Origin: Escherichia coli
GTDB taxonomy: Bacteria; Pseudomonadota; Gammaproteobacteria; Enterobacterales; Enterobacteriaceae
Direction: 5' to 3' (one strand)
Length of the DNA: 23,492 bases
NCBI RefSeq assembly: GCF_003334765.1
Contig: NZ_QOWT01000046.1
The translations under genes were made by a program, and so were the position numbers. The notes under the pieces are model-generated. The model made no database searches. It had not been told where the DNA came from and saw only the letters and a program-made list of their open reading frames with translations. This document shows positions 8,902 through 9,840 of the stretch, one piece after another. Position 1 is the stretch's first letter; each line of letters starts with the position of its first letter.

Positions 8902-9518
8902 TTTATGAATCAGTCTGTGGAGTTAGGGTTGGTGTGAACAAGTAGGGTAAGAGCCTCAACGTGATGCTATGCCGACCTGCTCCCTGAGAATTCACACAGA
9001 AGGCTGCTAGCAATGTCCGCAGATCGCTCAAAGCGGACTAGAAGGTTAGCTTGCGTCGGACTTGGCGTATTTAAAGAAGTGCTGGTGGTGACTGGTTGTT
9101 GTGTTCCATTTCTACAGAACAAAATCACAGAAACTATACCCAATAGTTATATTGAATCAATGATGAGACAGCCTCATATTTATCAGAACTGGTGTACGTC
9201 CAATACAGGAGGTTGTCGTGCTGGTTCTCAAATGTGCGCTAGCTATTGCGGCTGTAATGGCAATTTATTGTCTTGCTGTTGTTCTTACGGATCGCCTTTC
9301 TGATTGATTTTATATTGGCGAGGTGACGGGAGTTAAGTAGAATTGCTGCGGGTGCTTGAGGCTATCTGCCTCAGGCATGAACACCAAAGGCAGATAGAGA
9401 AAAGCCCCAGTTAACATTATGCGTCCTGCAAGACGTTTAACATTAATCTGAGGCTCAATCTATGAACGGCAAATCTAGGTTAGCCTCTTACGTGCCGAAA
9501 GGCAAGGAGAAGCAGGCT

Positions 9519-9674
9519 ATGAAGCAGCAAAAGGCGATGTTAATCGCCCTGATCGTCATCTGTTTAACCGTCATAATGACGGCACTGGTAACGAGGAAAG
9601 ACCTCTGCGAGGTACGAATCCGAACCGGCCAGACGGAGGTCGCTGTCTTCACAGCTTACGAACCTGAGGAGTAA
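9519..9674 (+). CDS. hokD: Hok/Gef-family membrane toxin (51 aa)
   Basis: Product MKQQKAMLIALIVICLTVIMTALVTRKDLCEVRIRTGQTEVAVFTAYEPEE is near-identical to HokD/RelF as I recall it; AGGAGA SD; an in-frame upstream ATG at 9462 gives a mok-like extension; the paralogue name is inferred from the neighbouring YdfU-like gene. Confidence 0.8.
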   Translation: MKQQKAMLIALIVICLTVIMTALVTRKDLCEVRIRTGQTEVAVFTAYEPEE

Positions 9675-9743
9675 GAGACCAGGCGGGGGAGAATCCCTCG
9701 CCACCTCTGATGTGTCAGGCATCCTCAACGCACCCGCACTTAA

Positions 9744-9769
9744 CCCGCTTCGGCGGGTTTTGTTTTTTC
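9744..9769 (+). terminator. Intrinsic terminator downstream of hok
   Basis: CCCGC-TTCG-GCGGG hairpin followed by TTTTGTTTTTT. Confidence 0.7.
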
Positions 9770-9840
9770 CTAGCATTCTGGTTTACAATTCGCACACCAG
9801 CCTGAACAACTGGCACCTGCTGCGCCAGCAGAGACAACCG

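Follow-up and report, generated by a model that had tools for sequence, protein, structure and literature searches.

A predicted hok/sok-type toxin-antitoxin cassette of the hokD/hokW lineage in an Escherichia coli lambdoid prophage

The hok gene and its prophage setting

The stretch of DNA analysed, referred to here as the window, is 23,492 nucleotides of an E. coli contig (RefSeq accession number NZ_QOWT01000046.1). A first-pass annotation, made from the letters of the sequence, had reported a Hok-family toxin locus in which an open reading frame (ORF) of 51 amino acids (aa) encodes a Hok/Gef toxin. Both parts of that claim were upheld. The hok gene is located at 9519–9674 on the plus strand, and its product, MKQQKAMLIALIVICLTVIMTALVTRKDLCEVRIRTGQTEVAVFTAYEPEE, matches the complete Pfam model PF01848, HOK_GEF (model positions 1 to 42 of 42; E-value 5.2e-23), and PHROG 251, 'MokW-like host killing' (E-value 4e-33), while the DNA ahead of the gene matches Rfam family RF01794. 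The product shares 50 of 51 residues (98%) with HokD of K-12, from which it differs by V20M, and 46 of 51 (90%) with HokW of Sakai prophage 5 (Sp5), and close relatives of the gene carry the name hokD in RefSeq. It thereby fits the Hok/Gef type of small peptide, which is about 50 aa long, with a hydrophobic helix at the N-terminus and a conserved Cys towards the C-terminus. With the NCBIfam Hok models the protein scores 48 bits, under the curated cut-off of 73 bits. V20M is a minority variant found at 3 of the 80 loci retained from a scan of IMG/VR, and the exact peptide was seen again in three independent phage contigs. A Shine-Dalgarno (SD) sequence for hok, GGAG, can be read at 9506–9509, and homology to the hokD gene of the Qin prophage begins one base upstream of it, at 9505. 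PADLOC returned no match for Hok or for the two functionally unassigned ORFs upstream.

The window belongs to a lambdoid (Qin/Rac-like) prophage. Proteins encoded in it include a Ren-like protein, a DUF968/HNH protein, RusA, a Q antiterminator and a DNA methyltransferase, and the RNA genes are those for DicF, three tRNAs and two copies of STnc100. The closest RefSeq relative is a prophage beside ompW in which racR, dicB and ydfD are annotated. The hok gene lies between the genes of the replication region and the Q antiterminator gene, in the same orientation as both, and the host prophage also carries an IS5 insertion. A Cys-rich ORF of 96 aa at 9013–9303 was taken to be spurious, having no NCBIfam or PHROG match and being unannotated in the RefSeq relatives.

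Promoter, terminator and folds of the hok mRNA

A consensus scan identified a promoter for a mok-hok mRNA at 9315–9343 on the plus strand (-35 TTGGCG, 17-nt spacer, -10 TAGAAT; 9 of 12 matches). Position 1 of the Rfam model falls at 9350, with the end of the -10 hexamer 7 nt ahead of it, and transcription is predicted to start near there. In most relatives homology begins at ~9327–9338, hence the -10 hexamer is shared with them and the -35 hexamer is not. The strong terminator noted in the first-pass annotation was recovered as an intrinsic terminator at 9742–9768 (AACCCGCTTCGGCGGGTT followed by a T-run), in which a stem of 7 pairs, 5 of them G-C, at 9742–9759 precedes TTTTGTTTTTT. The full-length hok mRNA would therefore be ~419 nt (9350–9768), with the 5' end set by the start of the RF01794 match and the 3' end placed at the terminator.

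An Rfam search, which had been suggested as a check on the locus, matched RF01794 to 9350–9524 on the plus strand over the full model (positions 1 to 157 of 157; 112.6 bits against a gathering score of 59; E-value 3e-25). The match covers a structured leader that includes a tac/ucb stem, an antisense-target hairpin and a stem formed by the mok SD and dcb. Though named 'sok', this family models the sense-strand hok leader and not the antisense RNA, so the match does not locate Sok. At a permissive threshold nothing credible beyond RF01794 was found by Rfam in 8850–9900, and there was no hit in the 430-nt gap at 8902–9330.

The regulatory elements of the hok mRNA can be assigned on the plus strand as follows. 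The translational activator element, tac (GGGUGCUUGAGG), is at 9350–9361 and, depending on the fold, pairs with fbi (minimum free energy, MFE, structure), with ucb (Rfam structure) or with 9368–9377 (leader-only fold); among 77 unique relatives, truncated loci included, it reads GGGTGCTTGAGG in 71. A 5' leader hairpin at 9362–9397 is formed by the inverted repeat CTATCTGCC (9362–9370) and GGCAGATAG (9389–9397), which had been picked out in the first-pass annotation and is present as described, and which sits within a 21-nt imperfect inverted repeat (9351–9371 with 9388–9408). The anti-Shine-Dalgarno box for mok, ucb (AAGCCCCAG), is at 9402–9410; its partner is the mok SD region in both the full-length and the nascent fold, and tac in the Rfam structure. 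The columns at 9401–9408 have zero entropy in the alignment of 68 intact relatives. The downstream complementary box, dcb (GCCUC), is at 9483–9487 and is retained in 73 of 77 relatives. In the open form its partner is the mok SD, and it contributes the third hairpin of the RF01794 consensus. The fold-back inhibition element, fbi (CCUCAACGCACCCGCA), is at 9723–9738 and was recognised from inverted repeats that allow it to pair with tac. These comprise a perfect 9-nt repeat (9347–9355 with 9730–9738) whose arms are 374 nt apart, and an extended repeat (9356–9373 with 9711–9728).

The full-length mRNA folds with an MFE of -172.6 kcal/mol (z = -8.4 against shuffled sequences) and its 5' and 3' ends pair together, its first 12 nt (tac) forming a 12-pair helix with CCUCAA-C-GCACCC at 9723–9735. 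When the leader was folded on its own (9350–9524), tac was found to pair with 9368–9377, giving a metastable hairpin, and the mok SD with AGCCCCAG, which belongs to ucb. In the Rfam consensus structure, tac is paired with ucb and the mok SD with GCCUC of dcb. The three folds correspond to the metastable, the closed full-length and the open truncated forms that have been described for the hok mRNA of plasmid R1 (PMC9841398). The open tac/ucb form was not reproduced in a fold of a 3'-truncated mRNA ending at 9728, because this arbitrary cut kept CCUCAA, and its assignment is based on the Rfam structure.

Conservation of the full-length structure was assessed in 68 distinct relatives drawn from IMG/VR and phage records. 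Across these, 96% of cells are paired, compared with ~40% when the partners are slid, though the first percentage is inflated by the closeness of the relatives and by the use of the window's own sequence to derive the structure. Pair changes affecting both sides number 7, versus 1.4 in shuffled alignments, and none of 500 shuffles reached 7. In the tac/fbi helix 99.7% of cells are paired; four pairs vary on one side, all of them G-C to G-U, and a fifth departs by one unpaired cell only. In the leader hairpin the figure is 98.4%, and in 3 sequences one A-U pair is replaced by G-C, both sides having changed.

The mok reading frame and the predicted Sok antisense RNA

The in-frame upstream extension of hok reported earlier was confirmed. 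It begins with an ATG at 9462 and constitutes mok, an ORF of 70 codons (9462–9674, plus strand) that runs through the hok start without a stop. Since mok shares the frame of hok, it would encode a Hok with an N-terminal extension. An SD sequence for mok, GAGG, can be read at 9450–9453, 8 nt ahead of the ATG, and GAGGC at this position is kept in 73 of 77 relatives. The ORF is open through the hok start in 67 of the 68 relatives despite the hypervariability of codons 2–5 described below. The layout of mok in this set is in frame with hok in 53 cases, while it ends at an ATGA overlap on the hok start in 12 and is in the +1 frame in 2. With this layout and its own SD, mok could be translationally coupled to hok.

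A sok promoter was placed on the minus strand at 9477–9505, with -35 TTGCCT (9505–9500), a 17-nt spacer and -10 TAACCT (9482–9477). A generic sigma-70 scan did not report this promoter, as the hexamers match the consensus at 5/6 and 3/6 positions and the latter is under the 4-of-6 floor; it was positioned by hand with the help of the published sokW primers. The 30 nt at 9507–9478, which take in the -35 hexamer and all but one of the six -10 bases, match the validated sokW sequence exactly, being identical to the hokW probe YO-597 of Takada et al. (PMC8621323), and the -10 hexamer is the one mutated by primer YO-421 in the promoter-less sokW construct of Takada et al., in which protection was abolished (PMC8621323).

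The Sok RNA itself is predicted to be ~72–77 nt long (9396–9470, minus strand), on the basis of the alignment of the sokC ends, its fold and its overlap with the region of the sokW probe of Takada et al., YO-592. The annotated 5' and 3' ends of sokC in K-12 align to 9470 and 9394, respectively. The predicted RNA, which folds at -27.1 kcal/mol (z = -4.7), begins with a single-stranded 5' tail of 9 nt, GCCGUUCAU, that covers the start codon of mok, and continues with a long hairpin and UUUUCU. It is ~18 nt longer than SokC owing to an extension at the apex of the hairpin that is common to the hokD/hokW lineage. A cis-antisense RNA with a promoter and terminator of its own, complementary to the mok initiation region, is thus predicted at the locus. 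The first-pass annotation had expected a Sok-type RNA on the minus strand at around 9440–9510. The strand is supported, but this range takes in only the promoter (9505–9477) and the first ~31 nt of the RNA, as Sok is predicted to start near 9470 and end near 9396, and so to lie mostly to the left of it.

Relationship to relBE-linked hokD and distribution

In the K-12 Qin prophage hokD follows relE in the relBEF arrangement. The first-pass annotation had described the window locus as lacking relBE and the upstream sequence as unrelated to these genes, and this is correct: a tblastn search with RelB and RelE of K-12 against the whole 23.5-kb window returned nothing with an E-value below 0.5. The locus has the HokD-type toxin sequence of relBEF (50 of 51 residues), but not its arrangement, in which hokD comes right after relE without a leader or sok of its own. 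Qin matches the window at 9505–9767 only (98.1% DNA identity), from the hok SD region onwards, and relE abuts this segment upstream, so K-12 hokD is the 5'-truncated derivative. It has lost tac, ucb and mok together with the hok promoter and the Sok transcript, and of the sok promoter it keeps only part of the -35 hexamer.

The absence of relBE had been implied to be an oddity, which did not hold. The leader (9345–9504, at a coverage of at least 80%) was found in 4146 of 5426 complete E. coli genomes, i.e. about three quarters, and the K-12 relE-hokD junction in 1165 of the same 5426. The leader occurs at 7,899 places in total, with up to 7 per genome, and matches to the hok region number up to ten in a poly-lysogenic genome. 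The RefSeq genomes carry no annotated feature under the leader. Among the 80 IMG/VR loci, which were chosen by Hok identity, the full leader is found in 75; of the others, 2 are of the relE type, 2 have other sequence at the same breakpoint and 1 has a hokC-like leader. Homology between modules usually extends from ~9327–9338 to ~9760–9767, indicating that the cassette is a discrete mosaic unit. On this evidence, the lack of relBE is the rule and the normal state.

Comparison with characterised hok/sok systems

The closest characterised system is hokW-sokW of Sp5 and 933W-type Stx2 phages (PMC8621323), which is also located in a lambdoid prophage. For HokW/sokW, toxicity of HokW, its neutralisation by Sok, 3' processing of the hok mRNA and cleavage of the duplex by RNase III have been demonstrated experimentally (PMC8621323). 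The copy in an Stx2 phage shares 93.3% DNA identity with the window over 9330–9745, including the in-frame mok of 70 codons, and its Sok hairpin has the same 18 nt added at the apex in comparison with sokC. However, the 3' end past fbi, terminator included, differs. The toxins differ at the C-terminus, which is FTAYEPEE in the window and FVDYESEK in HokW, and at position 20, where the window Hok, unlike HokW, has Met. The Sok 5' tails also differ, being GCCGUUCAU in the window and GUUCAGCAU in sokW.

In hokD (relF) of Qin, the 98.1% DNA identity covers the segment between the hok SD and the terminator, both of these and fbi included (9505–9767). Upstream of 9505 Qin has relE instead, whereas the window has the full leader and no relBE. 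Synteny downstream is weak, with 9824–11047 of the window matching DNA between rem and a position within ydfU at 83%, and the K-12 Rem protein has no match in the window.

The family prototype, hok/sok (parB) of plasmid R1, has the same architecture as the window cassette, with tac, fbi, ucb, dcb, mok and a cis-antisense Sok over the mok start, as the full-length RF01794 match and the folds show, though it is carried by a plasmid and the window cassette by a prophage. R1 Hok is only ~42% identical to the window Hok, an approximate figure; for HokW and R1 Hok, 44% identity has been reported (PMC8621323). In the window, in contrast to R1, mok is in frame with hok, and the predicted Sok (~72–77 nt) is longer than that of R1 due to the 18-nt hairpin extension.

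The hokC/mokC/sokC locus (gef) of K-12 shares with the window an in-frame mok whose first 9 nt are overlapped by Sok. Its leader can be aligned to that of the window throughout, but is more diverged and does not have the 18-nt insertion. It is a chromosomal, non-prophage locus, and in K-12 a copy of IS186 is found 20 bp downstream. The original description of chromosomal hok loci is reportedly that of Pedersen and Gerdes in 1999.

A hypervariable segment at the Sok 5' end

A patch of 12 nt (9465–9476) was found to be hypervariable among modules that are otherwise 89–99% identical. It corresponds to mok codons 2–5 on one strand and, on the other, to nt +1 to +6 of Sok plus the spacer between the sok -10 hexamer and the start. 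Its mean entropy is 1.03 bits per column, compared with 0.13 for the module, 0.043 for third-codon positions in hok and 0.49 for the 12-nt block that ranks second in variability. A further 120 IMG/VR loci yielded 10 different Sok tails of 9 nt; seven of these were each seen 10–21 times, and the tail in the window is one of the two commonest.

One possible interpretation, which we put forward tentatively and consider rather doubtful, is that the patch is a specificity determinant under diversifying or balancing selection, with at least seven discrete and roughly equally frequent classes in which each antitoxin would neutralise only its own hok mRNA, in the manner of immunity groups. A tendency of co-resident copies to avoid a shared Sok tail was not supported, with the tail the same in 8 of 21 pairs where 3.0 were expected, a comparison confounded by near-duplicate prophages and contigs. 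Relaxed constraint on a loop and leader-peptide segment is the simpler explanation. A limited literature search for Sok specificity classes in prophage hok/sok systems found none, which is no proof of newness.

Proposed mechanism and role

Taken together, the region at 9300–9770 very probably represents a complete type I toxin-antitoxin cassette of the hok/sok type, belonging to the hokD/hokW lineage and located in a lambdoid prophage, that acts as its counterparts in R1 and Sp5 do. The features listed in the first-pass annotation are not chance matches. Every sequence and structure element required is present and conserved, and at the sequence level the cassette looks intact rather than decayed. 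Transcription, 3' processing, toxicity, trigger and role are proposed by homology with hok/sok of plasmid R1, the mechanism of which is taken from PMC9841398, and with hokW-sokW of Sp5.

According to this model, the promoter at 9315–9343 would be constitutive and give rise to a stable mRNA of ~420 nt. While the mRNA is being synthesised, tac at its 5' end would be sequestered in a local hairpin. In the finished mRNA, tac would pair with fbi at the 3' end and ucb would mask the mok ribosome-binding site, such that no translation occurs. Slow trimming from the 3' end would strip off fbi, allowing tac to pair with ucb and exposing the mok ribosome-binding site, and translation of mok from 9462 would bring ribosomes into hok at 9519. 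The 51-aa Hok would be an inner-membrane peptide that damages the membrane and kills or arrests the cell. Sok, predicted to be short and unstable and transcribed from the minus strand with a start near 9470, would pair with the mok start region, block translation and trigger cleavage of the duplex. Hok would then be made only once the synthesis of Sok stops, which may occur on loss of the element, on a block to transcription or on induction of the prophage.

It is improbable that the locus, though complete-looking, is an inactive relic that, like the chromosomal hok loci of K-12, yields no toxin and no killing on loss, whether because of a weak sok or hok promoter, V20M or a mok that gives only a harmless fusion. 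Chromosomal hokA, hokB and hokC did not bring about post-segregational killing in earlier work (as summarised in bioRxiv 10.1101/2025.08.07.668861), the V20M allele is in the minority, and with its IS5 insertion the host prophage may itself be decaying. Against this, the ORFs, the SD sequences of mok and hok, the tac, ucb, dcb and fbi elements and the promoter and terminator on each strand show no disruption and agree with the consensus of the 68 to 77 relatives, the core of the sok promoter (9507–9478) and the in-frame mok are the same as in the functional hokW-sokW, and the exact peptide recurs in the three independent phage contigs. Still less credible, and to our minds barely worth entertaining, is the proposal that hok is the distal gene of an upstream operon, like hokD/relF in K-12 relBEF, and not part of an autonomous antisense-controlled module. 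The 98% identity of the toxin to K-12 HokD is in keeping with it, as is the co-orientation of hok with the upstream early-region genes, from which read-through transcripts are possible. However, relB and relE are not present, a full leader of 170 nt with its own promoter, tac, ucb, mok and sok separates hok from the upstream ORF, homology to relBEF begins only at 9505, and the module boundary in the IMG/VR loci, at ~9327–9338 and just upstream of the hok -10, marks a self-contained unit.

What the same module does for the prophage is more finely balanced. Post-segregational retention of the prophage, help with lysis and release on induction, and exclusion of lytic phages are the candidate roles, and we give an about even chance that the role is not stabilisation of the prophage but either faster lysis and phage release or abortive-infection defence against superinfecting lytic phages. 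For phage release, Takada et al. (2021, PMC8621323) found that mitomycin C removes sokW RNA, that HokW appears in a RecA-dependent manner and that deletion halves the phage yield, and the window module is 93% identical to hokW-sokW. As hok is co-oriented with early rightward transcription, induction would be expected to drive RNA polymerase against the sok promoter, which would fit the rapid loss of sokW RNA reported after mitomycin C. The IS5 insertion, on the other hand, may make the host prophage defective, and a role in phage release would then be moot. For defence, exclusion of T4 by R1 hok/sok is cited in PMC8621323 and PMC10305079. Set against these roles, Hok had no PADLOC match and a survey found no enrichment of hok near defence systems (bioRxiv 10.1101/2025.08.07.668861).

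Implications

The hok/sok cassette in the window is real but ordinary, and of a kind already known, given the RefSeq name hokD, the PHROGs family, the characterised homologue in Sp5 and a 2025–26 survey in which Hok was catalogued in 3,852 prophages (bioRxiv 10.1101/2025.08.07.668861). The window itself is therefore of little consequence, being one more copy of a cassette annotated as hokD in RefSeq. Genome annotations omit mok, Sok and the RNA switch elements, for all of which the analysis supplies exact positions. If the Sok tail is functional, its variation would bear on cross-talk among the up to seven leader-bearing copies found in poly-lysogenic E. coli. An expectation centred on K-12 is also corrected, in that the relBE-linked hokD is the rearranged minority and the autonomous hok/sok cassette the ancestral and common form.

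A possible recombination point just upstream of hok

Two phage contigs in IMG/VR (loci L015 and L024) were found to carry hok fused to an upstream sequence other than relE. The breakpoint in both is exactly that of the relE-hokD junction in the K-12 prophage Qin, which aligns to position 9505 of the window, just 5' of the hok Shine-Dalgarno sequence. The shared breakpoint suggests that recombination may have occurred repeatedly at this point. A single metagenome contig (IMGVR_UViG_3300029594_000093; loci L155 and L040) was also found to have an intact hok/sok module ~3.3 kb from a hokD linked to relE.

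Variation in mok and Sok

The mok frame at 9462-9518 in the window was compared with that in other hok loci, including L016 and L029. Of 68 close relatives, 53 resemble the window in having a 70-aa mok that shares the hok reading frame, 12 have a 19-codon mok with a stop codon overlapping the hok start (ATGA) and 2 have a 68-codon mok in the +1 frame. In all three frame types, mok is open as far as the hok start.

A hypervariable patch was observed at 9465-9476 (and 9455-9461), within a module that is otherwise 89-99% identical, and it contains the 5' tail of the predicted antisense RNA Sok, the spacer of the sok promoter and mok codons 2-5. Ten distinct versions of the 9-nt Sok tail were present among 120 phage contigs, and seven of these were each seen 10-21 times. 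Co-resident hok/sok copies showed no preference for differing Sok tails, with 8 of 21 pairs having the same tail versus 3 expected.

Other features of the prophage

Directly upstream of the hok module, at 6772-8901, are two conserved phage ORFs of unassigned function (phrog_17908 and phrog_16994), for which no match was found in NCBIfam or PADLOC. Comparison with NZ_CP148289, which carries the closest RefSeq prophage, shows a ~1.2 kb insertion in the window (5212-6407), located in the early region close to a Ren-like gene and encoding a 326-aa IS5-family transposase (NF033581, 367 bits).

A pair of ORFs at 19597-21226, located 3' of the lysis genes and ahead of a terminal region matching the tail-fibre end of Qin, encodes an sce7726-family protein on the plus strand (PADLOC 'cll' match) and a 354-aa protein on the minus strand with PADLOC PD-Lambda-2_C matches (E 6e-32). 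The pair is a candidate anti-phage defence moron. Rfam matches at 1419-1470 (minus strand) and at 14049-14295, 14374-15051 and 23273-23471 (all plus strand), comprising DicF, three tRNAs, two STnc100 copies and IS009, are typical of lambdoid prophages.

Potential editing sites in hok

Two UACG sequences are present in hok. An edited A in that at 9612-9615 would be at 9613, the third base of Val32, and editing there would therefore be synonymous. The other, at 9657-9660, is formed by the Tyr47 codon UAC and the following G, and is unchanged across the 68 relatives. According to a recent preprint, TadA carries out A-to-I editing of hokD mRNA at the corresponding position, changing Tyr to Cys. 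Such a change would provide Cys30 with a second cysteine as its disulfide partner.
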